Source: Chloroflexota bacterium (GTDB lineage Bacteria; Chloroflexota; Dehalococcoidia; DSTF01; JACRBR01). From it: a stretch of 46,656 nt of DNA. The stretch is from positions 1-46,656 of the forward strand of contig JACRBR010000202.1 in NCBI GenBank assembly GCA_016213125.1. The letters run 5' to 3'. The notes under the pieces were generated by a model. It ran no database searches and was not told the origin of the DNA. It was given only the letters and a program-made list of their open reading frames with translations. This document shows, piece after piece, positions 8,163 to 35,725 of the stretch. Numbering within the stretch: position 1 is the stretch's first letter; every line of letters begins with the position of its first letter. Both the position numbers and the translations under genes were made by a program.

Positions 8163-8290
8163 CAATCAAACGCGAAGCTGAAACGTTTGATCGCCAGAAA
8201 TTCCTGTCAATCAATCCAATCAAACCCGAAGCTGAGATCGTTGATTGCCCGGCACCCCACCCAATCAAACCAATCAAACGCCCGAAGCTA
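8163..8290. repeat. Array of CAATCAA(AC) motifs with two stem-loops in a 526-bp non-coding spacer
   Basis: CAATCAA occurs at 8163, 8208, 8217, 8262 and 8271. Three copies extend to CAATCAAAC(g/c/gc)CGAAGCT (8163-8179, 8217-8233, 8271-8289). Hairpin 1: atcaaacg 8165-8172 / cgtttgat 8184-8191. Hairpin 2: caatcaa 8217-8223 / ttgattg 8241-8247. Confidence 0.6.
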
Positions 8291-11069: not shown

Positions 11070-11084
11070 CCAGTGCATCACGCA

Positions 11085-11116
11085 GCCGGCGGGCGGAACG
11101 CGTTCCGCCCGCCGGC
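11085..11116 (+). terminator. Perfect 32-nt palindrome (candidate terminator/attenuator between the DinB and PIG-L genes)
   Basis: gccggcgggcggaacg|cgttccgcccgccggc, a 16-bp perfect GC-rich stem starting 16 nt after the DinB stop. No T-tract follows. The track ORF start (GTG 11073) would place it inside a coding region, so I prefer the downstream GTG at 11136. Confidence 0.55.
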
Positions 11117-11135
11117 TCAGTCAGAGGGCGGTCAC

Positions 11136-13560: not shown

Positions 13561-14451
13561 TCAGTCGGGCCAGATCTTCTCCAGGACGCTCCACTGCCCC
13601 GGATCCTTCCTCAGTGCGATCTCGAACAGGTCGAGCAGCCGCTGCGAGTTGACCCGCACGTCCTCGTCGTGGTTACCGGAGCGAATCAGCTCCATGGGCG
13701 GACCGATGTCTGCGCGGATCTTGAATCCATCCGTGCGATACACCCAGCCCGGGAGAAGAATCGAGTTGGTGCGAAGCGCGAGATCCGCGGCCCCCGTAGG
13801 GAACTTCGCGTTCGCGCCGCAGAGTTCCAACTCGATGCCGCGCTTCTGGATGTCGCGGTCGATCAGGATGCAGAGGATGCCACCGTTTCGCAGCCAGGTC
13901 ATCGCCTCTTTGATCGCCCGGAAGCTCACGGGCTCATAGCGGTGGCCATGCTTGATGCGCAGGCCGCGCATGAGCCGATCCAGCTCCGGCGGGTGCAGCG
14001 GCTCCACCAGCGCGAACACGTGGAGGCCGATGCCCGCGAGCGCCTGCGCGGCGAACTCCGGGTTCGCGTAGTGAGCGGATGCCAGGACGACGCCCTGCCC
14101 GCGGGACTGCGCTTCCCGGATGTACTCCAGGCCACGCATATCCAGCTCTCTCTCGTAGAAAGTCTTCGTGTCCATGCCGAGCAGGCCGACGATGTCCGCG
14201 TAGTAACGTCCCGTGTTGCGGGCACAGGCACGTCCCAGGCGGTCGATCTCTTCCTCGGTAGCGCCCGGTCCAAGGACATGCCGCATATTGCTTCGGACGT
14301 TGTCGCGGATCGACCGTCGCCAATCATAGATGCGGTCGCTGGCGAACCGCGAGATCGCATACCTCCAGTTAAGCGGCATGGCCCCGATCGTGTGGATCAC
14401 CAACCACATCAGGTAGTACTTCCACTTGCTGCGGCGGGGCAAGAGACTCAT
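13561..14451 (-). CDS. Lysophospholipid/lipid A-type acyltransferase (HtrB/LpxL/PatA family), paralog 2
   Basis: 296 aa. N-terminal membrane anchor. Active-site region VVLASAHYANPE (H-x4-E variant of H-x4-D). ILIDRD and FPTGAADLALRT segments typical of the LABLAT family. Confidence 0.8.
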   Translation of the reverse strand: MSLLPRRSKWKYYLMWLVIHTIGAMPLNWRYAISRFASDRIYDWRRSIRDNVRSNMRHVLGPGATEEEIDRLGRACARNTGRYYADIVGLLGMDTKTFYERELDMRGLEYIREAQSRGQGVVLASAHYANPEFAAQALAGIGLHVFALVEPLHPPELDRLMRGLRIKHGHRYEPVSFRAIKEAMTWLRNGGILCILIDRDIQKRGIELELCGANAKFPTGAADLALRTNSILLPGWVYRTDGFKIRADIGPPMELIRSGNHDEDVRVNSQRLLDLFEIALRKDPGQWSVLEKIWPD

Positions 14452-14454
14452 CGA

Positions 14455-15339
14455 TTATGCGCCAGCGGCCCAGAGGCGGCGGAAGATGAACCACTGGTGT
14501 GGGTGCTCCCGGATTGTGGGTTCCATCGAATGCATGATGCGCAACGTGAGTTCGTGTACATCGGCCTGTTCATCTCCGGTCGGCTTGAAGTCGCGCAGGC
14601 TCGTATCGATGATAGGGTGGATGACGAGGTCATCCTGGGGGCCCCGAAGCACGACGGCGGGGACGACCCACGCGCCCGTTCGCAGGGCGATACGGGCCGC
14701 CGCCGGCGACACGAGGGCAGGTGCGCCAAAGAAGTCAACCCGGATTCCGTCCTCCTCCGAAACGATGTCTACCAGCATCGCCAGCATTTCACCCTTGCGC
14801 AACGCCTTGAACACCGTCGGGCCGACGCGGCCCCCCCCGATGACCCTCATGCCGAGCTTCACGCGCGAACCCTGGACCAGTTCGTTCATCGGCTGGTACC
14901 GGAAGGTCTCGGCAATGGCGTTCACCGGGTACCCGAACGCCGCAAGCGCGGCCGCGCCCAGATCCCAGTTGCCGAAGTGCAGCGTCGCGATAATCACCCC
15001 TCGGCCCGAATCGGCGGCCTGGTTCAGTTCATCCCACTGGTCGAAGCGAAGGCGTTCCTGGATCTCGTTCCGTGTCAGAGCCGGGTAGTGGATGAAGTCG
15101 ATGACGTACTTGCCGAAGTTACCGAACGAGCGCCGCGCGACGGAATCGACGAACCTGGCGTCGTCGCTTTGCAGTACGTGCGCCAGGTTTGCGTTCAGCG
15201 CCCTGCGGTGGCGGGGGAAGATGACCCAGTAGCAGAGGACGGCGACGCGCTCTGCGACCCAGTAGCCGGCTCGCAGCGGGAACGGCCTCGCCAGGAGGAT
15301 CGTCAGGCGGAAGAGCCAGTAGACCGTCCTGTCGAGCAC
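14455..15339 (-). CDS. Lysophospholipid/lipid A-type acyltransferase (HtrB/LpxL/PatA family), paralog 1
   Basis: 294 aa with a GTG start. Canonical H-x4-D motif in IIATLHFGNWD, plus MLVD and FFGAPALVSPAAARIALRTG. Ends 3 nt before the start of the paralog. Confidence 0.8.
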   Translation of the reverse strand: MLDRTVYWLFRLTILLARPFPLRAGYWVAERVAVLCYWVIFPRHRRALNANLAHVLQSDDARFVDSVARRSFGNFGKYVIDFIHYPALTRNEIQERLRFDQWDELNQAADSGRGVIIATLHFGNWDLGAAALAAFGYPVNAIAETFRYQPMNELVQGSRVKLGMRVIGGGRVGPTVFKALRKGEMLAMLVDIVSEEDGIRVDFFGAPALVSPAAARIALRTGAWVVPAVVLRGPQDDLVIHPIIDTSLRDFKPTGDEQADVHELTLRIMHSMEPTIREHPHQWFIFRRLWAAGA

Positions 15340-15510: not shown

Positions 15511-17061
15511 CTACTCCGCTACGTACTCCAGTTCCAGGTCCTCGGCGTAGTATTCCGCTCCCAGGTGTGTGATTTGTTCCTCGCCCATCAGCCAGCGGAG
15601 CGTGTTCTTCAGCTTCGTCTGCTGAATGAACAGGTCGTGCTCCGGGTAGACCAGCGGCGCGTGCTGCGGGCTCTTGAAATAGAACGAAAGCCACTCCTGG
15701 ATACCGGCCATCCCTGCGCGCTTCGCCAGGTCCAGGAAGAGCGCCAGGTCAAGTGCCAGTGGTGCTGCCAGGATCGAGTCCCGGCAGAGGAAGTCGATCT
15801 TGATCTGCATCGGATAGCCCAGCCATCCGAAGATGTCGATGTTGTCCCAGCCCTCTTTGTTGTCTCCCCGCGGGGGGTAGTAGTTGATCCGCACCTTGTG
15901 GAAGATGTTGCCGTACAGCTCCGGGTAGAGGTCCGGCTGCAGGACATACTCGAGCACGCCCAGCTTCGACTCCTCCTTCGTCTTGAAGGACTCCGGGTCG
16001 TCCAGTACCTCGCCGTCGCGGTTGCCAAGGATGTTGGTCGAGTACCAGCCGTTCACGCCGAGCATGCGGGCCTTCAGCATCGGCGCGAGAACGGTCTTCA
16101 TCAGCGTCTGCCCCGTCTTGAAGTCTTTACCACAGACGGGAACGCCCTTATCGCGCGCCAGCTTCACCATCGCAGGCACGTCCACGCACAGGTTCGGGGC
16201 GCCGTTAGCGAAGGGAACCCCCTCCATGATCGCGGCCCAGGCGTAGAGCATCGAAGGGGCGATCTGCGGGTCGTTGGCCTCCATCGCCGCCTCCAGGTTC
16301 TCGAGGTTCGTGTGCACTTCGCTCGGCTCGAGGAAGATCTCGGTCGATGCGCACCAGACCATCACCAGCCGGTCGCAGCTGTTCTTCTTCTTGAAGTCGC
16401 GGATGTCCTTACGCAGAGCCTCGGCGGCCTCCATTTTCGTGCCCGTCTTCTTCACGTTCGTGCCATGCAGGCGCTTTACGTAATAGTCGTCGAACACTGC
16501 GGGCATCGGCACGATCGTCTTCAGGTAGTCGGCAATCGGTTCGATGTGCTCGTGGCGGTCGAGGACCCCGCACTTCAGGGCGGCCTCGTACGCGTTGTCG
16601 GGGAACGCATCCCACGCCCCAAACACAATCTGGCGGAGCTCGGCCAGCGGCACGAAGTCACGGATCAGGGGCATGCGGTTCTCGGTGCGCTTGCCGAGCC
16701 GGATCGTGCCCATCTGGGTGAGCGACCCGATCGGCGAAGCCGACCCCCGCCGCGCATGCTCCACGCCGGCGATCAGCGTCGACGCGACGGCGCCGAGTCC
16801 GACCAGCAGTACGCCCAGCTTGCCCTCTGCGGGCGCGATCTCGTGGGGTTGGTTGTGGGTGAACTCTTTGGCTTCCAAGACGATTCCTTTCTGCCGGGCC
16901 AGCGACATCAGCGGCCCGTGCCACTGCGCCGGAACCCGCCCCGTGCTGGCCCAGTGCTCGATGGTGGACTGTCGCTTGCCAAGCAGGTTGGCAAGCGCCG
17001 TTTGCCCTCCGAAGCGAGCGATGATGCGTTGTGCCGGGTTTGCGTGTCCGTCCGACTGCAC
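15511..17061 (-). CDS. ino1: myo-Inositol-1-phosphate synthase with an ~81-aa N-terminal Cro/YdaS-like HTH extension
   Basis: MIPS hallmarks: Rossmann GVLLVGLGAVAS, NGWYSTNILGNRDG, GWDNIDIFGWLGYPMQIKIDFLCRDSILAAPLALDLALF. In-frame N-terminal RIIARFGGQTALANLLGKRQSTIEHWASTGRVPAQW resembles a Cro/YdaS helix-turn-helix. GTG start at 17061. An alternative internal ATG (codon 52, 16908) cannot be excluded. Confidence 0.85.
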   Translation of the reverse strand: MQSDGHANPAQRIIARFGGQTALANLLGKRQSTIEHWASTGRVPAQWHGPLMSLARQKGIVLEAKEFTHNQPHEIAPAEGKLGVLLVGLGAVASTLIAGVEHARRGSASPIGSLTQMGTIRLGKRTENRMPLIRDFVPLAELRQIVFGAWDAFPDNAYEAALKCGVLDRHEHIEPIADYLKTIVPMPAVFDDYYVKRLHGTNVKKTGTKMEAAEALRKDIRDFKKKNSCDRLVMVWCASTEIFLEPSEVHTNLENLEAAMEANDPQIAPSMLYAWAAIMEGVPFANGAPNLCVDVPAMVKLARDKGVPVCGKDFKTGQTLMKTVLAPMLKARMLGVNGWYSTNILGNRDGEVLDDPESFKTKEESKLGVLEYVLQPDLYPELYGNIFHKVRINYYPPRGDNKEGWDNIDIFGWLGYPMQIKIDFLCRDSILAAPLALDLALFLDLAKRAGMAGIQEWLSFYFKSPQHAPLVYPEHDLFIQQTKLKNTLRWLMGEEQITHLGAEYYAEDLELEYVAE

Positions 17062-20503: not shown

Positions 20504-20980
20504 CTACACGGGGAGTGAGGGTGACGAGGGGTGACCGGGCGCGGGGGCGTCAGTCTTCGGCCAGATCGCGTACGCGATGGCGCCCCACGTGATGGCGTCG
20601 ATGATCCAGTTGGCGACTGGCAGACCGATCAGCCGCGGCCCAATATTGACGTCCGGAAAGTACGGCGCTTTGTCCAGGAGGACGTGCGAGCCCACGACCG
20701 CGGCGCCGGTGAGGGCGTCATAGATCAGGTCGCGCTCGCCCTCGACGCTCTCCGCCGCGAGGATGCCAGTCATGCCCGCCAGCATGCCGGCGGTGAGGGC
20801 GAAGTTCGGCGTGTGTGTCGGGCCACGGTGGATGTCCTTCCCGAGGATCGCCCCGATCGGCACGTCGACGTCGGGAAGACTCGCGGCGAAAAACGCGGCG
20901 GCCAGACCCAGCGGAGACCGAACGCCCATGCGCCGCGCGATCGCCATCCCCACGAACCCATGCCCAAACGGCGCCGCCAT
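20504..20980 (-). CDS. Membrane-bound metal-dependent hydrolase, YdjM/DUF457-like
   Basis: 158 aa, hydrophobic. N-terminal His (FGHGFVG), LPDVDV and HRGPTHT motifs typical of DUF457. Last gene of the minus-strand glycosylation operon. Confidence 0.6.
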   Translation of the reverse strand: MAAPFGHGFVGMAIARRMGVRSPLGLAAAFFAASLPDVDVPIGAILGKDIHRGPTHTPNFALTAGMLAGMTGILAAESVEGERDLIYDALTGAAVVGSHVLLDKAPYFPDVNIGPRLIGLPVANWIIDAITWGAIAYAIWPKTDAPAPGHPSSPSLPV

Positions 20981-21047
20981 AGATGCTCCTCCCGGGAACG
21001 CGCTTCGGGTTCAGGATACAGGACGATCGCGTCTCCGATTGAGAGAT

Positions 21048-21923
21048 CTAGGCAGCGCGTTCGTCGGCGCCGTCTTCCCCCGCAACCACCGCGAGGAACT
21101 TCACCCGTTCGGTGGCCTCCGCTCCACGCAGCATCGCGTTCACATGGTCCGCCGCCCGAAGCACGTGGAGGTCGACTCCGATGCTGTGTGCCAGGTCGAG
21201 CAGCGCATGGCTGTCCTTCGGCAGGCATTTCCCGCCGTAGCCGCGATACCCGTCGTACAGCACCTGTAGGTGCGAGTCGCCGATGCGCGCGTCGGCCCCG
21301 ACGATGTCGCGGACCACGTCGTAGTCCAGGCGCAGCCGGTCGCAAAGATCGAACATCTCATTTGCATAGCTAACCTTCACCGCGAGGAAGGAATTGGCCG
21401 CATACTTGGCAAGCTCGGCCTCGCTGGCGCTGCACACGCGCTCGAATGGCGCACGCGGAAGGAGCTTCATCACGCGTTCGGCCTCTCCGGCGCTCGTGCT
21501 GGTGCAGCCGACAATCTGGCGGTCCGGCCGGAGGAAGTCGTCCAGGGCCGTGGCCTCGCGCAGGAACTCGGGGTTGAAGAGGAATCGGTGCTGCGGAATT
21601 CGATCCTGAAGCATCTCCGTCGTCCCCGGCAGGACGGTCGATTTGATCACAACGGTCTTGCTGCCATGAAGAGACGTGACAGCCCCCAGCAGGTGCCGGT
21701 CGTCGAATCCGTATCCGGGAGTGTAGGGCGTGGGGACGCAGATGAAGACGATGTCCGCATCCGCCAACGATGCAATCGAGTCGTGGCCCTTTGGCGGGTC
21801 AAACAACCGCACCGCATGGCCCTTGCCCTCCAGGTACACCCGAAGCGCTCCACCGACTATACCTTCGCCCATGATGCCGATGGGCCGGGCGTTGCTAAGC
21901 TGCTTGCCGGCTTCGTTCCGCAT
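21048..21923 (-). CDS. UDP-glucose/GDP-mannose dehydrogenase family protein lacking the C-terminal nucleotide-sugar-binding domain
   Basis: Rossmann IGIMGEGIVGG, FNPEFLREA, and catalytic-Cys region GYGGKCLPKD. Only 291 aa, and the next gene starts 67 nt after its stop. Its 5' end overlaps the GT2 gene by 29 nt. Confidence 0.75.
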   Translation of the reverse strand: MRNEAGKQLSNARPIGIMGEGIVGGALRVYLEGKGHAVRLFDPPKGHDSIASLADADIVFICVPTPYTPGYGFDDRHLLGAVTSLHGSKTVVIKSTVLPGTTEMLQDRIPQHRFLFNPEFLREATALDDFLRPDRQIVGCTSTSAGEAERVMKLLPRAPFERVCSASEAELAKYAANSFLAVKVSYANEMFDLCDRLRLDYDVVRDIVGADARIGDSHLQVLYDGYRGYGGKCLPKDSHALLDLAHSIGVDLHVLRAADHVNAMLRGAEATERVKFLAVVAGEDGADERAA

Positions 21924-22932
21924 ATGCCTCGCTTCCCTCGCGCTCTGTTCCCAATCCCTGTGTGTGTACGACCCGCAGGCGTGGACGCTCCCGCACCGCT
22001 GGGCCAGGCTCCGACTTCATGCGAAACAACACGTCTTCGATCATGCGGCGATTCCACGAGATCGCCAGCGCCAACATGCCGGTGATTATCATCTGGCCAC
22101 CCATGAACGAAAGAGCGGTGCCGATGACGAGCGACTGGACGTGTCCCTGGCTCTGGCCGTTTGCCGCCAGGATCGCGAACCGCGCGAACGGCAGCGCCCC
22201 GGCGAAGAGCAGTAGTGCCCCGATCGAGCCGTACACCTGCATTGGGCGATATAGGAGAAAGCTCCGCAGGATCACGCCGCCGGCGCGCGCAACATGACTC
22301 GAGATGCTCTTGATCAACCTTGACGGACGGGTCACGTGGCGCGCGGCGATCGGCACGTTCGCGATGCGAAGACGCTGGTCGATGGCATTGATCAGCGTCT
22401 CGTGCGTGTACGTGTGGTCGGAGAGCACATTGAGGCGCATCGCCGCTTCCGCGGTATACGCGCGAAAGCCGGTCGATACGTCGACTCCTGGCAGGCCGAG
22501 CGCGCGCTGCATGATGTAGTTCGCAACCTTGTTGCCGTACTTGTTTGCTGCCTTCATCGGCAGGTCGTCGATGAGCCTGCTGCCGATGGTGATGTCGGCT
22601 TCGTTCGCAAGAATTGGAGCGACGAGTTCGGCGATGCGGGTTTGGTCGTAGTGGTTGTCGGCGTCGGTGTTAACGATGATGTCGGCGCCGCGCGAAAGGG
22701 CTTCCTGCAGGGCGGTCTTGAAGGCGGCAGCAAGCCCGCGGGTGACCCGGTTCGAGATGACGTAGTCCGCGCCGGCACCCAGGGCCTCCGCAACGGTCGC
22801 ATCGCGCGATCCGTCGTCGATGACCAGCACCTCAACGAAGTCAATGCCGGGGATGCTCCTGGGGATCTCCTTGATCACGTCCGCGATCGTCGGAGCCTCG
22901 TTGAGCGCCGGGATCGTTACGATGAGCTTCAT
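21895..22932 (-). CDS. GT2 glycosyltransferase, polyprenyl-phosphate sugar synthase type (GtrB/DPM1/ArnC-like)
   Basis: MKLIVTIPALNE, VLVIDDGSRD and TDADNH (DxD) motifs. Two C-terminal TM helices (GSIGALLLFAGALPF..., LVIGTALSFMGGQMIITGMLALAI), as in GtrB-type enzymes. Confidence 0.85.
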   Translation of the reverse strand: MKLIVTIPALNEAPTIADVIKEIPRSIPGIDFVEVLVIDDGSRDATVAEALGAGADYVISNRVTRGLAAAFKTALQEALSRGADIIVNTDADNHYDQTRIAELVAPILANEADITIGSRLIDDLPMKAANKYGNKVANYIMQRALGLPGVDVSTGFRAYTAEAAMRLNVLSDHTYTHETLINAIDQRLRIANVPIAARHVTRPSRLIKSISSHVARAGGVILRSFLLYRPMQVYGSIGALLLFAGALPFARFAILAANGQSQGHVQSLVIGTALSFMGGQMIITGMLALAISWNRRMIEDVLFRMKSEPGPAVRERPRLRVVHTQGLGTEREGSEAYAERSRQAA

Positions 22933-23022
22933 GGAGCCGGACTCCCTTCCTACTAGAGAGTTTCTGTAGAATCCCGGAAAGCGTGCGTTAGGAAATACCC
23001 GGCCCGCTGCCGTGCTGAACCA

Positions 23023-25065
23023 CTAATGCCCGGGGGAGGCCGCTCGATCTGTCGTGGCCAGGTCGAAGCCCGCTAGTGCCGCTTGCAGTTCCCTGTGACT
23101 CAGCCCGCTGTCGCCATCTGTCACGCGCAGGGCCCCGCCCAGCCGGTGTTCGATCTCGGCCGCGTCTAGTCCTGTGTCCCGTTCCAGGGCCGCAAGGCCT
23201 CGCGGGGTGACTGATGTTGAGTGCGAGACTGGCGCGAGCAGCGAGCGGGTCACCGAGAACGCGAACATGCGGTCTCCACTGGTCCCGGCGAAAGTGTCCA
23301 TCAGGTGGAATGCGGAGTTCGCCGCGAAGTACCAGGCATAGGCCGAAGAACTGAACGCCACGTCCTCGCCAGTCAGCACGACGTAATCGATATCGTGGGC
23401 GGCGATGTACTCAAGTAGCTCTTGCTCGCTGAGTCCCACCCAGTAGTTCTTCACTGGGAACTGCTGGAGGTGTAGCCAGGTGTCGCCTGGCTGCGTGCTT
23501 CGGATGTCGGACTCTCCCCAGCGAAACAGGTTCGATCGAGCCTCGAGTAGTGGCGCCCTCTCCGGGTCGATGTCTACGCGAACGGTAGGAAGTTGCCTGA
23601 TGTGAAAGCGCCCCTCCGTCTCGACGTGGATACCGGAGAAGTACAGCCGGCTCATTAGCACGTTTGAGCCGGCGGGCAGGTGCTCTTCCATCCACGTAGC
23701 GACGCTTCGTGTGTACGGGCTATCCCAGGATCCCGACTCGTCGCGCGCCTCCGCCTCGCGCGCGGTGACGTCGCGGAACACCGACGCCTCATGGAACACG
23801 AACGCGGCCGCCGCGATTGCCGAGGCGCCGGCGAGGACCACGGTTGCGCTGTTGTCGATCGAGAACCGCCGCAGGGCCGGCCACGCGCCCGCGGCGGCAA
23901 TCCCCAGTGCGGCGTAGGAAAGGTAGATGAGTGGAAGCGCATCGCGTAGCTGGAGCCAGTCGTTTGCGGCCAATAAGGCAAAAGGCGCGAAGAGCGCCGC
24001 GGCCGCGCAAAGCATGCGGGAGGGTTCGTCGCCACGGACCGCGCGGGCGCACACCCAGATCCATGCGACCGCGATGAGGAAGAACGGCTGCATCTGGGGG
24101 GCCACGCGGAGCATGTAGCGCGGGATTGTCGTCAGGTACTCGTCCGGGTATCCCCAGGACGAGAATGAAGCCAGCCCGTAAATCATGAAGGCGCACCAGG
24201 TGACTGAGATCAGGACTGCCGCAGGCACTGCGTATCGGGGTGACGGCAGCCGCCGTATCGCGACGGCAAACCCAGCGAACACCGCGGCGATCGACAGGAC
24301 CACCAGACCCTCGGCGAGGAGGGCACGCGGATCGCCCAGCAGGAATAGCTGGCCCGTTTGGGCGAAGAGCCAAATCCACCACGGTGCCACGGTCGCCAGG
24401 AAGACCAGTGTGAACACGGCTGCTCCGCGGAACCCGTGGCGGTGGCGCGCCGAAGGCAGCGAAAGCACGACGACGATGGCCAGCGGCAGCCACTGCACGG
24501 CGGACTCCTTGATCAAGAAGGCAAAGCCAAGGCAGAGGCCGGATGCTGCATACCACCTCCATCGTCCGGACGTCACGGCCGTGTTCAGAGCCAGAGCGCA
24601 GAGGAGCAGGAAGCTGCATTGCATCGGGTCCAGGTAGAGGGTCGTCCCAAGCTCCGAAAGGTAGGCGGAGGCGGCCGCCGCCAGGCCCGTGATCCAACCA
24701 GCGAGCTGCCCCGCCATTCGCCATGCGAGTGCCATCACCAGCACCGCGTTGAAGACGACGACGAGCTTGGCAATACCATACGCCCCATCCGAGCCAGCGA
24801 GTCTGACCGCCGGTGCCAACAGGAGCGGGTAGAGCGGGGCCCGATGTGTGATTGTGTCTCCCGACGGGTAGGTCAGCCCCTTGCCGTGCGAGATGTTGAA
24901 TGCCTCCGCCACGTACAACGACTCATCCGACGAGAGGTGCGAGGGCGACGCGATCACCAGCGGGATGAGTAGTGCAGCCATGGCGGCCAGCGCCAACGGA
25001 AGTGACACCGCGCGCGCGTGAATCCTGCTCGCTGCTCGTGGCGCGATCGCGTTCGCCCGTAACAT
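23023..25065 (-). CDS. GT-C fold membrane glycosyltransferase (PMT/ArnT-like, GT39/GT83-type) with a C-terminal soluble domain
   Basis: First extracytoplasmic loop motif SSDESLYVAEAF...THRAPLYPLLLAP (the DE motif of PMT_2/ArnT-like enzymes). More than 10 TM segments, then an ~250-aa hydrophilic C-terminal domain. Preferred start is ATG 25065 (MLRANAI...); the track ORF starts at 25101. Confidence 0.8.
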   Translation of the reverse strand: MLRANAIAPRAASRIHARAVSLPLALAAMAALLIPLVIASPSHLSSDESLYVAEAFNISHGKGLTYPSGDTITHRAPLYPLLLAPAVRLAGSDGAYGIAKLVVVFNAVLVMALAWRMAGQLAGWITGLAAAASAYLSELGTTLYLDPMQCSFLLLCALALNTAVTSGRWRWYAASGLCLGFAFLIKESAVQWLPLAIVVVLSLPSARHRHGFRGAAVFTLVFLATVAPWWIWLFAQTGQLFLLGDPRALLAEGLVVLSIAAVFAGFAVAIRRLPSPRYAVPAAVLISVTWCAFMIYGLASFSSWGYPDEYLTTIPRYMLRVAPQMQPFFLIAVAWIWVCARAVRGDEPSRMLCAAAALFAPFALLAANDWLQLRDALPLIYLSYAALGIAAAGAWPALRRFSIDNSATVVLAGASAIAAAAFVFHEASVFRDVTAREAEARDESGSWDSPYTRSVATWMEEHLPAGSNVLMSRLYFSGIHVETEGRFHIRQLPTVRVDIDPERAPLLEARSNLFRWGESDIRSTQPGDTWLHLQQFPVKNYWVGLSEQELLEYIAAHDIDYVVLTGEDVAFSSSAYAWYFAANSAFHLMDTFAGTSGDRMFAFSVTRSLLAPVSHSTSVTPRGLAALERDTGLDAAEIEHRLGGALRVTDGDSGLSHRELQAALAGFDLATTDRAASPGH

Positions 25066-25137
25066 TGGTACATCATCCTGGCACCGGTGGCGCCGTGCCA
25101 TCGGTGGTTCCCTTACAGCTTGCTCACGGCGTGCAAT

Positions 25138-25169
25138 GAGGAGAGGGTCGCATGTGCGGCCCTCTCCTC
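25138..25169 (-). terminator. Intra-operon stem-loop between the mini-protein gene and the GT-C gene (terminator/attenuator or mRNA-stabilising hairpin)
   Basis: gaggagagggtcgc (25138-25151) / gcggccctctcctc (25156-25169): a 14-bp stem with one mismatch and a 4-nt loop, located 23 nt downstream of the mini-protein stop. No clear U-tract. Confidence 0.5.
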
Positions 25170-25191
25170 ACCTGTCGCTTGTGCTTGGGGT

Positions 25192-25575
25192 TTACGCTTT
25201 GCGACCGCCCGGGATCTTGCCGCCGGCAACCATCAGGGCCGTACCTGCAGCGAGGACTGCGGCCGCGAGGCCCAGCAGCACCATCGTGTTCGCAGCGCCG
25301 TTCGTGCCGGCCGTGCCGTAGCCGGCCGAAGGCAACGTGCCCGCACCGGCCTGGTTGCCGGCGTTCGTCGTCACCGGGTTGGTCGGCGGCTCAACCGGCG
25401 ACTGCGGCGGCGTGCTCGGCGCGACGGTCGGCTGTGCCGCGACTGTGGTCGGCGTCGCATCTGTGTTGTCCGTGCCGGCGCCTGACGTCGTCGTCACCGC
25501 CATGCTTGCGATGGTCAGCCCTGCCACAACCACGGTCGCGGCGATGCCGAGCAACGCACCCTTTGTCTTCAACAT
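25192..25575 (-). CDS. Small secreted Thr/Pro-rich protein with an LPXTG-like C-terminal sorting signal
   Basis: 127 aa. Signal peptide MLKTKGALLGIAATVVVAGLTIASMA. About 70-residue low-complexity region with ~17 Thr and ~10 Pro (DATPTTVAAQPTVAPSTPPQSPVEPPTNPVTT). C-terminus: LPSAG, 12-aa spacer, 22-aa hydrophobic helix, then basic tail KIPGGRKA. Strong SD upstream. Confidence 0.7.
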   Translation of the reverse strand: MLKTKGALLGIAATVVVAGLTIASMAVTTTSGAGTDNTDATPTTVAAQPTVAPSTPPQSPVEPPTNPVTTNAGNQAGAGTLPSAGYGTAGTNGAANTMVLLGLAAAVLAAGTALMVAGGKIPGGRKA

Positions 25576-25580
25576 CCCGT

Positions 25581-25588
25581 TCCTCCTT
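25581..25588 (-). promoter_or_regulatory. Strong Shine-Dalgarno (AAGGAGGA) for the mini-protein gene
   Basis: The minus strand reads acacAAGGAGGAacgggATG. This is the best SD match I saw in the window, with 5-nt spacing. Confidence 0.65.
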
Positions 25589-25975
25589 GTGTGAGGGCCA
25601 CGTCGAACCGGCGTCCGCCGACATGCCTGACCCTGCCTGGTCTTGTGTGATGTTCGGCTACCGGCCGGGCGGTCTTGACCCCGAATCGTGGCTTCCGGAT
25701 GTTAAAGCTTCGTAAACCGGGGCTGGCCTCGAATCTGAACCCAGAATCATGGCCAAGGACGCGCCCTGTGGGGCACCTCCCTTACTGCCGGGCGGGTGCC
25801 AGCCCCCGAGACTTCTCTCAGAGGTCGATGATCGACACGAACCAGTGCCCGTGCCCCTGGGACGGAGATCCGCATGTGGCAACGACTCAGGCGCCCGGTG
25901 ATGCCGTCCACTGGCGCAGTCATACCGTGGAGGCGTGATCACGAGCGCGTACGTAACGGGCCTGGAGCCGCTGGT

Positions 25976-27049
25976 GTGACGCTCTCCGCGGTCATCGTCA
26001 GCTCGCATCCCGCCCGGCGTTGTGGGGTCGCTGACTACTCCCGGGAGCTGGTGCGCCACATGCCTCCGCATGTCCATGCGGTTCACCGTCGGCTTGACTT
26101 GCGTTCAGGGCTAATCTCGTATCTGGTGCAGTGCTTTCGGGTGTCCGCGACGCTGCTGTGCTCGCGCCCGGACGTGTTTCATCTGCAGTACACGCCGACC
26201 ACCAGCGGGCCGGCGGCGCTGTGGCTGGTCTTGCTCGCAAGGCTGCGTGGGGCTCGGACGTTCATCACGTGCCACGAGCGCCCATCAACCTACGCGCGGG
26301 TGCTACCGCGATTCGCGCGCCGCCTCTATAGCGCGTTTGAGCGAATCCTCCTGCACCTGGCCGAACGTGTCTTCGTGCTCTCGGAGGTTCATGAGGCGGA
26401 GCTCGTACGCACGTACGGTGTTCAGCCCCGGCTTGTCCATCTTGGTGTGCGGGAAGCGGCTCGTGGCCGCAGCAGGCACGCGCCGGGACCAACGCTAACG
26501 TTTGCGGGGTTCCTCAGGCCCCAGAAGGGTCTGGAGGACATCATCGAGGCCGCACCGATCATCGCCGAGCGCCTGGGAAGAATTCGAGTCCAGATTGTCG
26601 GCGCGGTCGCTTCCCGGGATCGGGCCTACGTCGACGACCTGAGGCGCACGCTGGCGGCGGTCGAGGAAGGCGAACGGTGCCAGATCGAGCTGGTCGAAGA
26701 TGCGGGGGACGCCGAGTTCGAGCGGCGCGTGCTCGTATCGGATCTGTTCGTCTTCCCATCGCGGAGGGCTTCGCAGAGCATCACGCTGAACCTTGTGCTG
26801 GAGGGCCGCATCCCGATTGTCAGCGCGGCGGGAACAGGTGTCGCCGAGATCGTGGATCAGCACCAGCTGGGGGCGATCTATGTCCCGGGTGACGCACAAG
26901 GTCTGGCTCGCGCGGTGATCGACCTGTTACGCGACGTCCACCGCTACCACATCTGCCAGTCGAACATCGCCGGATTCGCGCGGCTCACCGGCTGGCGGAC
27001 GGTCTCGCAGCAGCACGCCGATGACTATGAGGAGTTACGGGCGGCGTGA
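25976..27049 (+). CDS. GT4 glycosyltransferase
   Basis: N-terminal IVSSHPARRCGVADYSREL, and a C-terminal GT1-fold region with FVFPSRRASQSITLNLVLEGRIPIVSA (E-x7-E-like). Preferred GTG start at 25976 behind ggag; the track ORF starts at 25874. Stop overlaps the next gene (GTGA). Confidence 0.8.
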   Translation: MTLSAVIVSSHPARRCGVADYSRELVRHMPPHVHAVHRRLDLRSGLISYLVQCFRVSATLLCSRPDVFHLQYTPTTSGPAALWLVLLARLRGARTFITCHERPSTYARVLPRFARRLYSAFERILLHLAERVFVLSEVHEAELVRTYGVQPRLVHLGVREAARGRSRHAPGPTLTFAGFLRPQKGLEDIIEAAPIIAERLGRIRVQIVGAVASRDRAYVDDLRRTLAAVEEGERCQIELVEDAGDAEFERRVLVSDLFVFPSRRASQSITLNLVLEGRIPIVSAAGTGVAEIVDQHQLGAIYVPGDAQGLARAVIDLLRDVHRYHICQSNIAGFARLTGWRTVSQQHADDYEELRAA

Positions 27050-29097: not shown

Positions 29098-30431
29098 CGT
29101 CCGATATCGCAGCACTCGGGCGGCGCAGCACAATGTTCAGAGCGGTGGCGTTCGTGGGAGTCGGCGAAGTCGCGGCCAAGGTCGGGCTCGTCGTTGCTAC
29201 CCTCGTCGTCGCCAGGACGCTGGGCGCCGATGCCTTTGGCCAATGGTCATATGCAGCCGCGATGGCGGGGGTCATCGGTCTCCTGGCCGAGGCCGGGCTC
29301 ACGAACGCATTGCAGCGCAGGATCGCGCGTGGGGATGAGGATGCGGCTAATCTGATATCGAACGCGCTCGCGATGAAGCTCCTGGCGGCGCTGGCGGCGA
29401 TCGCCGTGGTGGCGATCATCGCCGTGATAGGCCGCAAGCCGGGGCCGGTGGCGCTGAGCCTGCTGATGCTGGGCGTGTTCTCGATCGCGAATACGTCGGC
29501 GCTAATGGTGCAGGGGGTGTTCCGCGCGACGGCGTCATCACACCTCGACGCGGTTGCCCGCATCGGCCAGCAGATTGCACTCGTGGCGGCCGTCCTGACG
29601 TTGGCGACGATGTCAGCCGGAGTGATCGCGTTTAGTGTCGGTTATGCCGTCACAGGGGCGATTGGCATCACGATATCGCTATTGATCCTACACAGCCATG
29701 CTGTTCCGGTCAGAATGCGCTTCGATTTCGACGTGTGGCGCAGCCTGGCGCAAGAGGCCTGGCCGTTCTGGGTCGCGGGCATTCTCTGGATCGCATATTT
29801 TCGCGTCGATGTGGTGATCCTATCGTACCTCGGCACCGACCGGCAGGCCGGCCTCTATAACCTGGCGTACAACGGGTTTCAGGTACTGACGCTACCGTCC
29901 GCCGTTCTGGCCGGGGCGCTTTATCCATCGTTCGCGCATCTGTACAAGAACGACGTACCCCGCTTCGACCTGCTGCGCTGGCGGACGCACATTGCCTGCC
30001 TTGTCTCGGGGGCCGCGATCGCCGGCGCCGCGAGCCTGGCGGTTGGGCCGGGTATTCGTCTGATCGCCGGGACCGAGTACGAAGGCAGCGTCCTGTTGTT
30101 CCGCGTCCTGACGTTGGGACTGGTGTTTCTGTACCCCAACTACCTGATGTTCCAGACACTCTCCGCGGCCGGCCGACAACGGTTGGTGATGCTGGCTGCC
30201 GGTGTCGGAGCAGCATCGAATATCTGCTTGAATCTCGTGCTGGTGCCGGGACTGCAGGCCCTTGGTGCGAGCATCGCAACTATCAGCACCGAGGCCGTCG
30301 TCTTCTGTGTCTTGAGCGTGATGGCGTGGCGGGCTCTAGGCGTGACCGATGGGCGGGAGAAGCCGGTACTTATCGTCGTCGAGCCAGCGGGCAGAGAACT
30401 ACAGGTGCCCGACAGTCAACGCGCCGCTTGA
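29094..30431 (+). CDS. Wzx-like oligosaccharide flippase (MOP/polysaccharide biosynthesis protein family)
   Basis: 445 aa with about 12-14 TM segments. N-terminal pattern GEVAAKVGLVVATLVVARTLGADAFGQWSYA typical of Wzx/PST-family flippases. Confidence 0.8.
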   Translation: MTSDIAALGRRSTMFRAVAFVGVGEVAAKVGLVVATLVVARTLGADAFGQWSYAAAMAGVIGLLAEAGLTNALQRRIARGDEDAANLISNALAMKLLAALAAIAVVAIIAVIGRKPGPVALSLLMLGVFSIANTSALMVQGVFRATASSHLDAVARIGQQIALVAAVLTLATMSAGVIAFSVGYAVTGAIGITISLLILHSHAVPVRMRFDFDVWRSLAQEAWPFWVAGILWIAYFRVDVVILSYLGTDRQAGLYNLAYNGFQVLTLPSAVLAGALYPSFAHLYKNDVPRFDLLRWRTHIACLVSGAAIAGAASLAVGPGIRLIAGTEYEGSVLLFRVLTLGLVFLYPNYLMFQTLSAAGRQRLVMLAAGVGAASNICLNLVLVPGLQALGASIATISTEAVVFCVLSVMAWRALGVTDGREKPVLIVVEPAGRELQVPDSQRAA

Positions 30432-31534
30432 TCTTGCATGGCCGTTTCGTAGGCTGAGATCGTCAGCTCGGCACAGCGTTTCCAGCTGAAGCGCTCTGCC
30501 CGTGCCAGCCCGCCCTCGATGAGCCGTCGGCGGAGTTCGCCGTTGCACACAATCTCGATCAAGCCTTCGGCGATAGAAGGCACAGAGTGTTGGTCCACCA
30601 GAATGGCATCGTCGCCGACGACCTCCGGCAGGCTGGACGCGCGCGATGTCACGACGGGTACGCCGCATTGCATCGCCTCCAGTGCGGGCAGGCCAAATCC
30701 CTCGTAGAGCGAGGGGTAAGCGAGAGCGATCGCGCCGTTGTACACGAGAGGAAGGTCATCGTGGTCTATGTCTGTGCGACGAAGCACACGACCCGAAAGG
30801 CCCAGATCGTGGATAAGGGCATCGAGCCCGGGAAGGCCCCACGAGCGCCGGCCGACAAGTAGCAGGCTGACGCCCTGCATACTCGACCCGGCGTGCGCGA
30901 ATGCGCGGATGAGCGCCGGTACGTTCTTGCGCGGCTCGATGCTGCCCACGAACAGGAGGTAGCACCGAGGCAGCCCAAGCCTGGCGCGAGCTGCCTCGAC
31001 GGAGGCGGGAGGATGTGGCCTGAAACTCGCGCTCGCCGCGAGCGGCGTGACCGTGATCCTTCCCGGCGGCACATGAAGGATGCGCTCGATGTCCCGGCGA
31101 GAATGCTCCGAGAACGTCACGATGTGGTCGGCGCGCCGTGCGATCGCCGGGAGCAAGATGCGGTGCGCGAGCTTCGATGATAATGGCGCACCTGTGGATA
31201 CGATCGGGGTGAGGTCACCGATGGTGAGCACGCGCGCGAAACGCGATCCGCGGAGGAATGGCCCGAAGTGATACGTATCGTGCACGAGGTCGTACCCACG
31301 CTCGTCCAGCCAGCGAGGCAGGCTCCACTGACGGCGCAGGCGGCGTGGTAAGGGAACTGATCGAAGATCCGGGACGGCATTGGGGAGCCCTTCGTAGAAG
31401 GGATGCGGACCGCGGTGCACAAGCGTGACGCTTCCCGGGAGCGCTTCTATCAGCGCGCGCGAGAGATTCATCGCGTAGCTCGAAAAACCTGGTGCGTCGG
31501 CGTCGATAGAGTCGGTGAGCACAGCTACGCGCAT
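30416..31534 (-). CDS. GT4 glycosyltransferase
   Basis: Preferred start ATG 31534 (MRVAVLTDSIDADAPGFSSY...). C-terminal motif YPSLYEGFGLPALEAMQCGVPVVTS. The track ORF extension to 31801 is non-GT-like. Its 3' end overlaps the convergent flippase gene by 16 nt. Confidence 0.85.
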   Translation of the reverse strand: MRVAVLTDSIDADAPGFSSYAMNLSRALIEALPGSVTLVHRGPHPFYEGLPNAVPDLRSVPLPRRLRRQWSLPRWLDERGYDLVHDTYHFGPFLRGSRFARVLTIGDLTPIVSTGAPLSSKLAHRILLPAIARRADHIVTFSEHSRRDIERILHVPPGRITVTPLAASASFRPHPPASVEAARARLGLPRCYLLFVGSIEPRKNVPALIRAFAHAGSSMQGVSLLLVGRRSWGLPGLDALIHDLGLSGRVLRRTDIDHDDLPLVYNGAIALAYPSLYEGFGLPALEAMQCGVPVVTSRASSLPEVVGDDAILVDQHSVPSIAEGLIEIVCNGELRRRLIEGGLARAERFSWKRCAELTISAYETAMQDQAAR

Positions 31535-31693
31535 GTGCAAATCATACAAGCGAGCGGCCGCGAGTCTCGTCCGTGGCGGTCTCACAAACGCCCTGAAGCC
31601 GCCATGTAAGGCGGACGTGTAGGGGAAGTGCTGATTGAGACGGGCAGGGTGGTCCGCGATGATGGACTGACCTTCGACGTGGACAGGAGCGCC

Positions 31694-32335
31694 ATGAGTT
31701 CTTCCGGGGATGGAGCGGCTGCATTCGCGATCCCATCGTGGGGTCACTACTACGACTTCGACCTGAGCTGGTCCCACCACGCAATGAACGTGGTGCAGCA
31801 CCTGCCCCTCGTGCTTGCGGTCAGAAGGCTAAGGCCTCGGAGCGTGCTCGAGGTCGGAACGGGAACCGGATCACTCTCGATCTTCATGTCGTACTTCAAC
31901 CAGCGTGTTGTCTCAGTTGACCTGTCTCCTCGCGTGCTGGAACGCGCCCGCGGCAACAGCAAGCGCTTGCGCGGCCGGGCGGACTTCCGCGAAGGCGATG
32001 CGTTTGCGCTCGATGGCATCGCAAACGGCGCATTCGATGTCTCGGTGTCGCAAGGGTTCTTCGAACACTTCTGTGACGAAGACATCGCCTCGTTGCTGAA
32101 GGAGCAGCTTCGCGTCTCCCGGTACGCGGTGTTCAGCGTGCCCAACGAGGCCTACGGGCGGCAAGACCGCGGCGACGAGCGTCTCCTGCGACGGGAGCAG
32201 TGGGACACGACGCTGATGGCGCACGGGCTCCACATCGTGCGTTCTGGCGAGTATCGGCCGTTGTCGCGTTCTGCGCTCCTTCCAGGCGGCTGGCGTAAAC
32301 CAGCGACGATGTACCTGGCCACGGTGACGCGGTAA
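31694..32335 (+). CDS. Class I SAM-dependent methyltransferase
   Basis: Motif I VLEVGTGTGSLS, and post-I/II motifs VVSVDLS and GAFDVSVSQGFFEH. ATG 31694 sits behind caggag with 4-nt spacing. A GTG at 31628 is an alternative start. Confidence 0.8.
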   Translation: MSSSGDGAAAFAIPSWGHYYDFDLSWSHHAMNVVQHLPLVLAVRRLRPRSVLEVGTGTGSLSIFMSYFNQRVVSVDLSPRVLERARGNSKRLRGRADFREGDAFALDGIANGAFDVSVSQGFFEHFCDEDIASLLKEQLRVSRYAVFSVPNEAYGRQDRGDERLLRREQWDTTLMAHGLHIVRSGEYRPLSRSALLPGGWRKPATMYLATVTR

Positions 32336-32342
32336 CAGCGCG

Positions 32343-33464
32343 ATGATCGAATCCGCGGGTCTCCGACTCCTTTTCATCGCCCGGGCCTATCCACCCACGC
32401 TTGGGGGGATGGAGAATCTGGCTTGCAACCTGCTGCAGCACCTCCAGCGGCGCGAAGATTTGGACGTGACATCGTTGATAAACCGCCGCGGGAAGAAGAG
32501 CCTTCCGATCTTTCTGCCGTCCGCCGTTGTACAGGGAGCGAACACCGCGCGTCGCCACAAGATCGAGGCGATACATCTTGCCGATGCCCTGCTCGCGCCG
32601 GTTGGCGTGGCACTCAAGAGGCTGACCGGGTTGCCGGTGACGGCGTCGGTGTGCGGCTTGGATGTGACGTATCCAAACCGCTTCTACCAGGCGGCGATCC
32701 CGCGCGCGCTGAAGGAACTCGCCCTGGTGATGCCGATAAGCCGCGCGACCGAGGAGCAGTTGCGTGCGCGGGCGGGATTCGGCGTGCCGTCGGTGGTTGT
32801 GCCCCTCGGCATCAACCCGCTGCCTGTGTCCAACCAGGAAGCAGCGCATGACTTTCGCGCATCGATAGGCGTGGCGGCGGAGAAGCCGATCGTTCTCACG
32901 GTTGGCAGGTTGATCGCACGAAAAGGCGTCGCCTGGTTCGTGGGTGAGGTCCTTCCCCGGCTCGGCAGCGACGTGGTGTACGTCATCGTTGGGGACGGCC
33001 CGGAGCGGGATCGCATCGCCGGGGCCGCCGCTGCACAGAACGTCTCAGACCGCGTTCGGCAGATGGGCCGCGTCGATGATGCGACGCTGGCGTCCGCCTA
33101 CGCGGCAGCGGATGTCTTCGTCATGCCGAATGTCCCCGTGCCCGGTGACATCGAGGGATTCGGGCTGGTGGCTCTGGAGGCTGCGGCGGCAGGCGTCCCC
33201 GTCATCGCGGCAGATCTCGAGGGAATCCGGCAGGCGGTGCGCCACGGACACAACGGGCTGCTGGCGTCTGCGAAGGACGCCCAAGCCTGGGCCGAGGCGA
33301 TTTCCTCGCTTCTGGCGCTGCCGCCTGTGGAGCGTGAGGCGCTAGGCGCGAGATTTTCAGCCGCGGCGATGGCGGACTACAGCTGGGACAAGACGGCCGC
33401 CCGCTATGCGGCCCTGATCACGGACCTCGTCCGCGGAGAGCGTGCCGTTGCCGCAGCCGCTTAG
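32343..33464 (+). CDS. GT4 glycosyltransferase
   Basis: LLFIARAYPPTLGGMEN N-terminus. C-terminal FVMPNVPVPGDIEGFGLVALEAAAAGVPVIAA (E-x7-E). Its stop overlaps the convergent protease stop (TTAG at 33461-33464). Confidence 0.85.
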   Translation: MIESAGLRLLFIARAYPPTLGGMENLACNLLQHLQRREDLDVTSLINRRGKKSLPIFLPSAVVQGANTARRHKIEAIHLADALLAPVGVALKRLTGLPVTASVCGLDVTYPNRFYQAAIPRALKELALVMPISRATEEQLRARAGFGVPSVVVPLGINPLPVSNQEAAHDFRASIGVAAEKPIVLTVGRLIARKGVAWFVGEVLPRLGSDVVYVIVGDGPERDRIAGAAAAQNVSDRVRQMGRVDDATLASAYAAADVFVMPNVPVPGDIEGFGLVALEAAAAGVPVIAADLEGIRQAVRHGHNGLLASAKDAQAWAEAISSLLALPPVEREALGARFSAAAMADYSWDKTAARYAALITDLVRGERAVAAAA

Positions 33465-35500: not shown

Positions 35501-35725
35501 CGCACCCCCTAGATACGTTCGGGGCGGCCTGACCCGCACCACCCTCTTAGGTAAGTTTCGGTATCCGCCCCTAGGACCCTTAGTGGTTCTCCCTGATTTG
35601 TACGGAGCGCATCTGGGAGGCCAGCTGATTGGCGACCAAACGTTCTTGACGGGGCCGTGTAGCTTCACATTTCAGAGGCATTCGGGGGGCGACATAAGTG
35701 TCCCGGGGCTGTATGCTCGGCCCTG

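Follow-up and report, generated by a model that had tools for sequence, protein, structure and literature searches.

What is a gene for a short, threonine- and proline-rich exported protein doing directly upstream of a set of membrane glycosylation genes? This question is raised by a 46,656-nucleotide stretch of contig (46.6 kb, GC content ~65%; the window in the following refers to this whole stretch) from a metagenome-assembled genome (MAG) of the Dehalococcoidia, phylum Chloroflexota, with soil or groundwater as its source habitat. A first-pass annotation had interpreted five co-directional minus-strand open reading frames (ORFs) in it as a self-contained protein O-glycosylation operon. The ORF list confirmed the five genes at their coordinates, and domain matches agree with the identities given to the glycosyltransferase (GT) of the GT-C type, the GT2 with two transmembrane helices, the truncated UDP-glucose dehydrogenase (UGDH)-like enzyme and the DUF457 protein:

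25192-25575, minus strand: mini-protein gene, 127 aa, NCBI locus HY873_08255, without a known domain
23023-25101, minus strand: GT-C 1, PMT_2 family, 692 aa (with the NCBI start, 25065, 680 aa)
21895-22932, minus strand: membrane-anchored GT2 (PF00535), predicted polyprenyl-phosphate-sugar synthase
21048-21923, minus strand: short UGDH-like dehydrogenase, 291 aa, PF03721 and PF00984
20504-20980, minus strand: YdjM/PF04307 (formerly DUF457) putative membrane metal-dependent hydrolase, E 8.5e-9

These genes are part of a conserved Dehalococcoidia cell-surface cassette. The answer we prefer, and in which we have about even confidence, is that the cassette produces a highly expressed disordered surface peptide that would be O-glycosylated outside the membrane via polyprenyl-phosphate sugars and then anchored by a sortase.

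The mini-protein contains 21 Thr and 11 Pro. Hydrophobicity prediction places an N-terminal helix at residues 9-27 and a C-terminal one at 98-116, and the segment between them (residues 27-84, 58 aa) holds 14 Thr, 10 Pro and 4 Ser but no Pfam domain. Judged by its sequence, this segment corresponds to a Ser/Thr-rich, disordered, extracytoplasmic acceptor region. The overall layout is a signal or transmembrane helix, the motif TTTSGAGTD, a Thr/Pro-rich segment predicted to be disordered with a central PPQSPVEPP, and a C-terminal sorting signal. The protein matches no family in Pfam or NCBIfam (NCBIfam at E <= 0.1), and the gene is real and conserved, as the first-pass annotation had presupposed. 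A first homologue search returned 19 clusters, and the substitutions relative to the homologue in locus L007 (19, 13 and 39 at the first, second and third codon position) are biased towards the third position; for these two reasons we judge the ORF to be coding and under selection. At 50% identity the family comprises 53 clusters among 1.84 billion representatives. Every member is 100-170 aa long and none carries a passenger domain. A G-x-x-T-D motif directly after the signal helix is conserved in the family, TTTSGAGTD being invariant in close relatives, and the central motif reads PPx[S/A]P[V/I][E/D]PP, whereas the linkers between the motifs differ in length and sequence. A pilin-like polymerization was considered and rejected, as residues 27-84 of the window protein contain no Lys, nor was any noticed in this segment of those homologues that were inspected visually.

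The first-pass annotation had missed two points, the sorting signal of the mini-protein and the sortase genes beside its homologues. The signal is the only one of the sortase type among the proteins of the window:

25195-25335, minus strand: sortase-type sorting signal, residues 81-127, consisting of LPSAG (residues 81-85), a 12-residue spacer, the helix 98-116 and the basic tail KIPGGRKA at the C-terminus

By sequence, the C-terminus thus has the LPXTG-like motif, helix and basic tail of a sortase substrate. The predicted cut lies between A and G. LPx[A/T/S]G is present in 66 of 69 family members (A in 56, T in 8, S in 2) with L, P and G invariant, and in 65 of the 69 it is followed by a tail of at least 25 residues with a basic last residue; the three members without the motif look truncated or chimeric. 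LPxAG sortase substrates have been reported from Staphylococcus aureus (PMC3436756).

A sortase gene adjoins the mini-protein gene, in divergent orientation, in five related loci (L022, L030, L031, L033, L034), for example:

L022, 4025-4681, divergent to the mini-protein gene: class-F-like sortase, PF04203 at E 3.8e-26

In L030, L031, L033 and L034 the sortase gene lies near position 10001. The sortase of L022 was located by a scan for the motif TLxTC and has the motifs AGH, TLITC and R of the His-Cys-Arg triad; NCBI labels its close relatives as class F sortases. A phmmer search with S. aureus SrtA over the window and 27 loci found nothing. The same C-terminal motif type occurs on other proteins of related loci. 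In L013 (630-2102, plus strand) a 490-aa protein with a Cys/Asp-rich N-terminal domain, a mucin-like Thr-rich region of ~270 residues and the C-terminus GLPSAGDG...RRRE is encoded 5 kb from the mini-protein cluster, and in L034 (1851-2276, minus strand) a protein ending in LPSSGTGG...RK lies beside a second sortase gene. This indicates that the LPSxG-type motif is a lineage-wide sorting signal and, given the Thr-rich LPSAG-type proteins near related clusters, that the glycosylation system probably serves more than a single Thr-rich protein. The term dedicated acceptor, used in the first-pass annotation, is therefore too strong with regard to the L013 protein. An acceptor role of the mini-protein is plausible; it is probably a principal acceptor but not the sole one.

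A functional linkage of the mini-protein gene with the genes for GT-C 1, GT2 and the short UGDH is strongly supported, and was approached from three independent starting points, namely the mini-protein, the GT-C and the sortase. Starting from the mini-protein, the three enzyme genes adjoin its gene in every context of sufficient length, comprising those of the homologues P0013, P0015 and P0018 and five metagenome loci; taken together, these contexts are L001, L003/L008, L004/L005 and L035-L039. The contig of L002 was too short to judge. The metagenome scan yielded only five loci because the back-translated search pattern was narrow. Starting from the GT-C, 22 loci were obtained from GTDB species genomes, all of them Dehalococcoidia/Chloroflexota MAGs. 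Five are cut off on the relevant side and thus uninformative, and 14 of the remaining 17 have a mini-protein homologue beside GT-C, GT2 and short UGDH, so that the synteny proposed in the first-pass annotation (small Thr/Pro-rich ORF, GT-C and GT2) was indeed recovered. Starting from the sortase, the contexts of five homologues in six loci were examined, and three of the homologues (in L030, L031, L033 and L034) lie divergent beside a run of mini-protein, GT-C, GT2, short UGDH and GT4 genes. The gene order itself varies: mini-GT2-UGDH-GT-C in L013, mini-protein and GT-C genes on opposite strands in L014 and L015, and mini-methyltransferase-GT4-GT-C in L017. Since the linkage outlasts these changes, it is maintained by selection and does not merely reflect descent from a single operon. 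In the subclade to which the window belongs, YdjM accompanies the cluster in 14 loci, and in L015 it lies directly downstream of the mini-protein gene. The mini-protein gene is thus linked to YdjM in this subclade and to the class-F-like sortase in the sister subclade (5 loci), and these two partners were never seen together; this complementary distribution is phylogenetically confounded.

The enzymes point to glycosylation via a lipid carrier. GT-C 1 matches PF13231 (E 2.8e-11) and has a C-terminal soluble domain; its 46 homologues are all from Chloroflexota/Dehalococcoidia. The residues S46-D47-E48-S49 in the first outer loop are invariant in an alignment of 41 sequences, from which an AlphaFold2 model with a pLDDT of 89 and a pTM of 0.89 was obtained. 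Although a search of the GT-C 1 sequence against those in the PDB gave no match, the best Foldseek matches of the model were AglB, STT3, ArnT and PglB (TM-score ~0.5, E 1e-8 to 1e-5, lowest 3.5e-8; ArnT at 1.6e-7), so that GT-C 1 has both the GT-C fold and, in its first outer loop, an acidic motif. It is not a GT39 protein O-mannosyltransferase proper: no PMT or MIR domain was matched at E <= 0.01, PF13231 being the only match, and the structures of Pmt1/2/4 rank 32nd or lower with partial matches over ~255 columns (E 4e-3 to 0.1). Of the domain searches suggested by the first-pass annotation, PF13231 and PF00535 were accordingly recovered on the GT-C and the GT2, and the PMT family proper was not.

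The GT2 (PF00535, E 3.6e-19) aligns end to end with ArnC, matches the dolichol-phosphate-mannose synthase of Pyrococcus (5mlz) in its N-terminal part and has two C-terminal hydrophobic helices (237-255 and 273-291). Its best NCBIfam matches are AglJ, PpgS and dolichol-phosphate-hexose transferases, all below cutoff. From its sequence it is therefore predicted to be a membrane-anchored polyprenyl-phosphate-sugar synthase, and the lipid-carrier logic that the first-pass annotation read from the GT2 and GT-C pair agrees with the homology of both proteins.

The short UGDH consists of the NAD-binding and central domains and aligns to residues 77-313 of the 478 residues of 2y0e. It keeps NPEFLxE and GYGGKCLPKD, the latter aligned with the catalytic-Cys motif of 2y0e, and stops at residue 291, where the C-terminal UDP-binding domain should begin; it scores 164 with TIGR03026 against a cutoff of 190. 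A single-sequence AlphaFold2 model was unusable (pLDDT 39). The length of 273-291 aa is conserved in intact orthologues, fragmented copies being present in some loci. In more than 20 loci the gene lies directly after that of the GT2, which is the place of every orthologue found (L003, L004, L007, L010, L011, L013-L017, L022, L025, L027, L030-L035, L038); in the window the two ORFs overlap by 29 nt at the GT2 stop according to the longest-ORF call. Because of the missing UDP-binding domain and the fixed place after the GT2, we speculate that the substrate of the enzyme may be a lipid-linked sugar instead of a nucleotide-linked one. Oxidoreductases that act on lipid-linked sugars exist, as exemplified by mycobacterial DprE1/E2.

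For glycosylation of the mini-protein, the evidence we draw on is gene linkage, and several observations weigh against the glycosylated, sortase-anchored peptide. As to anchoring, the 12-residue spacer between LPSAG and the helix exceeds that of classic sorting signals, the NCBIfam LPXTG-anchor model does not match the mini-protein (E <= 0.1), and the sortases of the related loci score only ~115-127 bits with their best NCBIfam match, class F, against a cutoff of 166 bits. Neither the window nor the remaining loci of its subclade yielded a sortase gene, and HY873 locus tags were absent among the sortase-homologue names listed. As to the acceptor, the central motif tolerates the exchange of Ser by Ala, which implies that this motif is not itself an obligatory glycosite. 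Three GT-C homologues (L023, L024, L027) have no mini-protein gene in their fetched flanks, and the fold neighbors of GT-C 1 include the lipid- or glycan-acting ArnT, ALG9/12, AftA/B, Emb and PimE. As lipid- and glycan-acting as well as protein-acting enzymes are found among these neighbors, the acceptor class is not readable from the GT-C fold. Finally, further genes recur with the cluster:

25874-27049, plus strand: GT4 glycosyltransferase that heads the divergent operon and is conserved in L007 and L038
27046-29097, plus strand: second GT-C-like polytopic protein (GT-C 2), PF13231 at E 1.2e-3 (below cutoff), ~9 hydrophobic helices
29094-30431, plus strand: Wzx-type flippase candidate, PF01943 at E 1.6e-21
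30416-31801, minus strand: GT4, recurs with the cluster
31628-32335, plus strand: methyltransferase, recurs with the cluster
32343-33464, plus strand: GT4, recurs with the cluster
33461-35668, minus strand: secreted S8 protease with three Big_7 domains and Pro/Thr-rich linkers, recurs within ~10 kb of the cluster

The recurrence of GT4s, methyltransferase, GT-C 2 and a Wzx or LPG_synthase_TM protein, the latter taking the flippase role in other loci, is what would be expected if the enzymes glycosylated a lipid or wall polymer. In that case GT2, flippase and GT-C would act like GtrABC, CsbB/YfhO, ArnC/ArnT or the mycobacterial, polyprenyl-phosphomannose-dependent PimE/Mpt, and the mini-protein, encoded in the same envelope locus, would be a sortase-anchored component of the wall that is regulated together with them. 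The fold neighbors of GT-C 1 and the three homologues without a nearby mini-protein gene fit this alternative as well. A further point in its favor is a gene set that hints at phosphatidylinositol-based glycolipids, similar to phosphatidylinositol mannosides (PIM), which might be extended by the GT-Cs:

8354-9502, minus strand: GT4
9499-10293, minus strand: PHP phosphoesterase
11073-11978, plus strand: PIG-L-family deacetylase
11975-13504, plus strand: pyridoxal-phosphate-dependent decarboxylase
13561-14451 and 14455-15339, minus strand: two Lip_A_acyltrans/PatA-like acyltransferases
15511-17061, minus strand: myo-inositol-1-phosphate synthase

However, this set is split from the cluster by unrelated genes and lies outside the conserved neighborhood. 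Moreover, the mini-protein gene stays with the GT-C, GT2 and short UGDH genes through rearrangements and down to identities at the limit of detection, and a Thr/Pro-rich disordered extracytoplasmic peptide is the acceptor type of the streptococcal and actinobacterial GT2 and GT-C systems (PMC12041528, PMC5856776). We regard a lipid or polymer acceptor as rather unlikely.

The two hydrophobic helices, the invariant motifs at the membrane boundaries, the strict position of the gene beside that of the GT-C in most loci and the window's lack of a sortase gene would also suit a mini-protein that stays uncleaved and unglycosylated and, as a bitopic or hairpin-shaped membrane protein, forms part of the GT-C complex or regulates it, TTTSGAGTD and LPSAGYG being in contact with the enzyme. 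This is hard to reconcile with the fourth position of LPx[A/T/S]G, which varies as in sortase signals and precedes a helix and basic tail, with the identical signal on unrelated larger proteins and with the sortase gene next to the mini-protein gene in five loci. The length-variable, low-complexity linker would be atypical for a specific subunit, and the expression signals described below argue for a product much above enzyme abundance. We consider such a subunit role highly unlikely.

The mini-protein gene is preceded by a strong Shine-Dalgarno (SD) sequence and followed by a stem-loop:

25582-25588, minus strand: SD sequence AAGGAGG, ends 6 nt before the mini-protein ATG
25135-25172, minus strand: GC-rich stem-loop with a 13-bp stem and a 3-bp inner stem

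Four AAGGAGG heptamers occur in the window, and only the copy of the mini-protein gene was seen just upstream of a listed ORF start; those at 15972 and 18550 are not so placed, and the one at 6233 falls inside the ORF 5124-6350, where an alternative start was not checked. With a duplex energy of -11.2 kcal/mol the SD is among the top five of the window and not, as had been claimed, uniquely the strongest. An alignment of six upstream regions shows GGAGGA to be invariant. In these six loci, a stretch of ~130 nt ahead of the mini-protein start (within 25576-25760, minus strand) is conserved, with the blocks TTTAAC, CTCAAG, GCCGAACAT, TTCGACGTGGCCC and GGAGGA, and CCTC could form base pairs with GGAG in the SD. 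We do not claim a conserved 5' leader fold or anti-SD hairpin, as the sequence is conserved but covariation support and Rfam matches are nil. Rfam and tRNA scans of the whole window gave zero matches, and a scan for sigma-70 and terminator consensus sequences called no promoter.

The stem-loop starts 20 nt after the mini-protein stop and ends 33 nt before the ATG of GT-C 1 (69 nt with the NCBI start). The 96-nt hairpin region folds at -38.2 kcal/mol (z = -5.1), and none of 200 shuffled sequences was as stable. The hairpin has no U-tract and was not called by the consensus terminator scan; judged by sequence, it thus does not qualify as a Rho-independent terminator. A strong GC-rich hairpin was found 3' of the mini-protein gene in all 18 homologues examined for it, compared with 6% of random windows (best 50-nt fold after the stop codon; background of random 153-nt windows from the same loci reaching -29.8 kcal/mol). 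The best folds range from -29.8 to -40 kcal/mol and start 6-57 nt past the stop codon, and the hairpin sequences differ between loci. The hairpin is kept even where GT2, YdjM or a methyltransferase gene follows (L013, L014, L015, L017). As it is present whatever the next gene, it is a property of the mini-protein cistron and not of the junction with the GT-C gene. It probably acts as a U-less partial terminator or as a stabilizer of the mRNA 3' end, and we prefer to regard it as marking the 3' end of an abundant mini-protein transcript or as attenuating this transcript; the consequence would be much substrate and little enzyme. Given that only 33-69 nt separate the hairpin from the GT-C start, the GT-C operon most likely depends on read-through. 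Of the earlier proposal that the hairpin sets the ratio of substrate to enzyme, the conserved element stands, while the ratio would be a consequence of an element that belongs to the mini-protein cistron.

These findings also bear on the strict form of the first-pass annotation, according to which a self-contained five-gene operon has the mini-protein as its sole, dedicated acceptor and a hairpin that specifically sets the ratio of substrate to enzyme. Tight linkage, the conserved hairpin and the lack of room for a promoter between hairpin and GT-C start in the window speak for it. Yet the hairpin follows the mini-protein gene irrespective of its neighbor, and the conserved unit exceeds five genes, adding GT4s, GT-C 2, a methyltransferase, a flippase-like protein and the S8 protease. 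The LPSAG protein near the L013 cluster and the S8 protease with its Pro/Thr-rich linkers suggest further clients, and the homologous streptococcal systems proved to have many substrates (PMC12041528). We find this strict form quite improbable.

Returning to the glycosylated, sortase-anchored peptide, we envisage the following course. Owing to its own strong ribosome-binding site and the 3' stem-loop, the mini-protein is expected to be far more abundant than the downstream enzymes. It would be exported via its N-terminal signal sequence and probably cleaved near TSG|AGTD, which would leave a disordered Thr/Pro-rich peptide of ~50 residues tethered in the membrane by the C-terminal helix. At the cytoplasmic face, the GT2 would transfer a hexose to polyprenyl phosphate, the lipid-linked sugar may be oxidized by the short UGDH-like enzyme, and the Wzx or LPG_synthase_TM-type protein would flip it. 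GT-C 1, possibly together with GT-C 2, would then move the sugar to Ser/Thr of the peptide on the outer side of the membrane, and the glycan may receive further decoration from the GT4s and the methyltransferase. Finally, a class-F-like sortase would cut LPSA|G and join the glycopeptide to the cell wall; its gene lies beside the cassette in the sister subclade, whereas in the MAG of the window it is either located elsewhere or missing.

A more far-reaching version of this idea, which we hold to be unlikely, regards the mini-protein not as an ordinary glycoprotein but as a dedicated peptide carrier, a minimal proteoglycan core. The GT-Cs, GT4s, methyltransferase and flippase would build a surface polysaccharide on it or attach one to it, and the class-F-like sortase would join the product covalently to the wall. 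Lacking the UDP-binding domain, the short UGDH would here oxidize the hexose in its lipid-linked form, turning polyprenyl-phosphate-hexose into polyprenyl-phosphate-hexuronate.

How does the proposed cassette compare with known systems? ArnC/ArnT, GtrA/B/C and CsbB/YfhO use lipid carriers to glycosylate lipid A, O-antigen or teichoic acids. They share the logic of GT2, flippase and GT-C with the window, whose GT2 resembles ArnC and whose GT-C model resembles ArnT; their acceptors, however, are lipids or polymers, whereas the partner in the window is a peptide with a sortase signal, and no genes of the ArnA/B/D pathway were seen within the window or the fetched loci. In the actinobacterial Ppm1/Pmt (GT39) system, a GT2 polyprenyl-phosphate-mannose synthase feeds a GT-C that O-mannosylates Thr in Pro/Ala-rich secreted proteins. 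The GT-C of the window differs in matching PF13231 and not PMT proper, in lacking MIR and in the weak, partial Foldseek matches to Pmt1/2/4. To our knowledge, actinobacterial Pmt and its substrates are not gene-clustered.

The closest known system is the Cnm-Pgf locus of Streptococcus mutans, in which cnm, encoding a Thr-rich LPxTG protein, is followed by a leaky terminator and pgfS (GT2), pgfM1 (GT-C), pgfE and pgfM2 (GT-C), all co-transcribed (PMC5856776). In view of this close precedent, the cassette is less unusual than the first-pass annotation had assumed. Both loci place the gene of a Thr-rich surface protein with a sorting signal immediately upstream of glycosylation genes, which in S. 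mutans act on that protein (PMC5856776, PMC12041528). Both have a terminator-like hairpin in between, which is read through in S. mutans and probably also in the window. The S. mutans set of the GT2 PgfS, the PMT_2-type GT-Cs PgfM1 and PgfM2 and the nucleotide-sugar enzyme PgfE has its counterpart in the LPSAG mini-protein, hairpin, GT-C 1, GT2, UGDH-like enzyme and GT-C 2, the latter being recurrent in the cassette in parallel to PgfM2. In contrast to the mini-protein, which consists of signal peptide, disordered linker and anchor, the adhesin Cnm is large and contains folded collagen-binding domains. Furthermore, the window has the GT-C ahead of the GT2, a truncated dehydrogenase instead of an epimerase, additional GT4, methyltransferase and flippase-like genes and, in related loci, a class-F-like sortase in place of class A, and it belongs to the Chloroflexota. 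No sequence orthology was detected past the level of Pfam families (NCBIfam match of the GT2 to PgfS at E 0.034).

In streptococci, the GT2 polyprenyl-phosphate-glucose synthase GtrB and the GT-C PgtC2 decorate extracytoplasmic Ser/Thr-rich disordered regions, and this glucosylation shields them from proteolysis (PMC12041528). The exposed part of the mini-protein is such a region, and an S8 protease gene recurs nearby, also in L003, L004, L007, L010, L011, L013, L014, L015 and L037; the protease could be another glycosylation client or a protease against which glycosylation protects. GtrB/PgtC2 act on C-terminal tails that belong to folded housekeeping membrane proteins, whose genes lie elsewhere in the genome, whereas the candidate acceptor of the window is a free-standing mini-protein inside the cassette. 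With regard to anchoring, the chaplins of Streptomyces and SspA of Actinoplanes are small or disordered proteins with a signal peptide and a C-terminal sorting signal (PMC8225981, PMC13293333, PMC13251363). They are anchored by actinobacterial-type sortases, resemble the mini-protein in having these two signals as main features, and differ in the use of class E sortases and LAxTG and in the absence of linked glycosylation genes. What is new compared with the known systems is the free-standing acceptor candidate without a folded domain, the link to a class-F-like sortase, the truncated UGDH and the occurrence in Chloroflexota. In our literature search, no published account of sortases or protein glycosylation in Dehalococcoidia was found.

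Some further features of the loci deserve mention. The cassette members that resemble GT-C 2 are very divergent, with weak PMT_2, DUF6798 or DUF2142 matches. They were seen in L003 (6866-8599), L033 (2110-3795), L001 (5628-7529) and L004 (17634-19220); proteins of 560-630 aa with a weak PMT_2 match recur in L001, L003 and L033, and a DUF2142 protein takes the position of GT-C 2 in L004. The window also encodes an 853-aa secreted protein (2470-5031, plus strand) with Asp-rich repeats similar to thrombospondin type 3 and without another domain or a sortase-type C-terminus. Phage capsid-like and adaptor-like genes (PF05065, GP7, SU10) are present in L003 (19342-20229, minus strand) and L028 (4507-5433, minus strand; 7591-8232, plus strand); these genes may represent the remains of prophages and show no apparent relation to the cluster.

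The envelope of Dehalococcoidia and of Chloroflexota in general is poorly understood, most members being uncultured, and the cassette predicts that it carries a short, glycosylated, sortase-anchored peptide. The literature still gives the physiological functions of class F sortases as unknown (PMC13251363), and the cassette offers a genetically linked pair of sortase and substrate for class-F-like enzymes. The glycan of Cnm has remained undetermined because of the size and repetitiveness of this protein (PMC5856776). With a mature exposed segment of ~50-60 residues, one GT2 and one GT-C, the system described here would be unusually simple for reconstituting GT-C-dependent protein O-glycosylation of bacteria. 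A conserved UGDH without a UDP-binding domain represents a separate enzymological puzzle. Should the mini-protein indeed be a minimal proteoglycan core, Chloroflexota would attach wall polysaccharide by a sortase-dependent route, and class F sortases would for the first time be assigned a physiological role.

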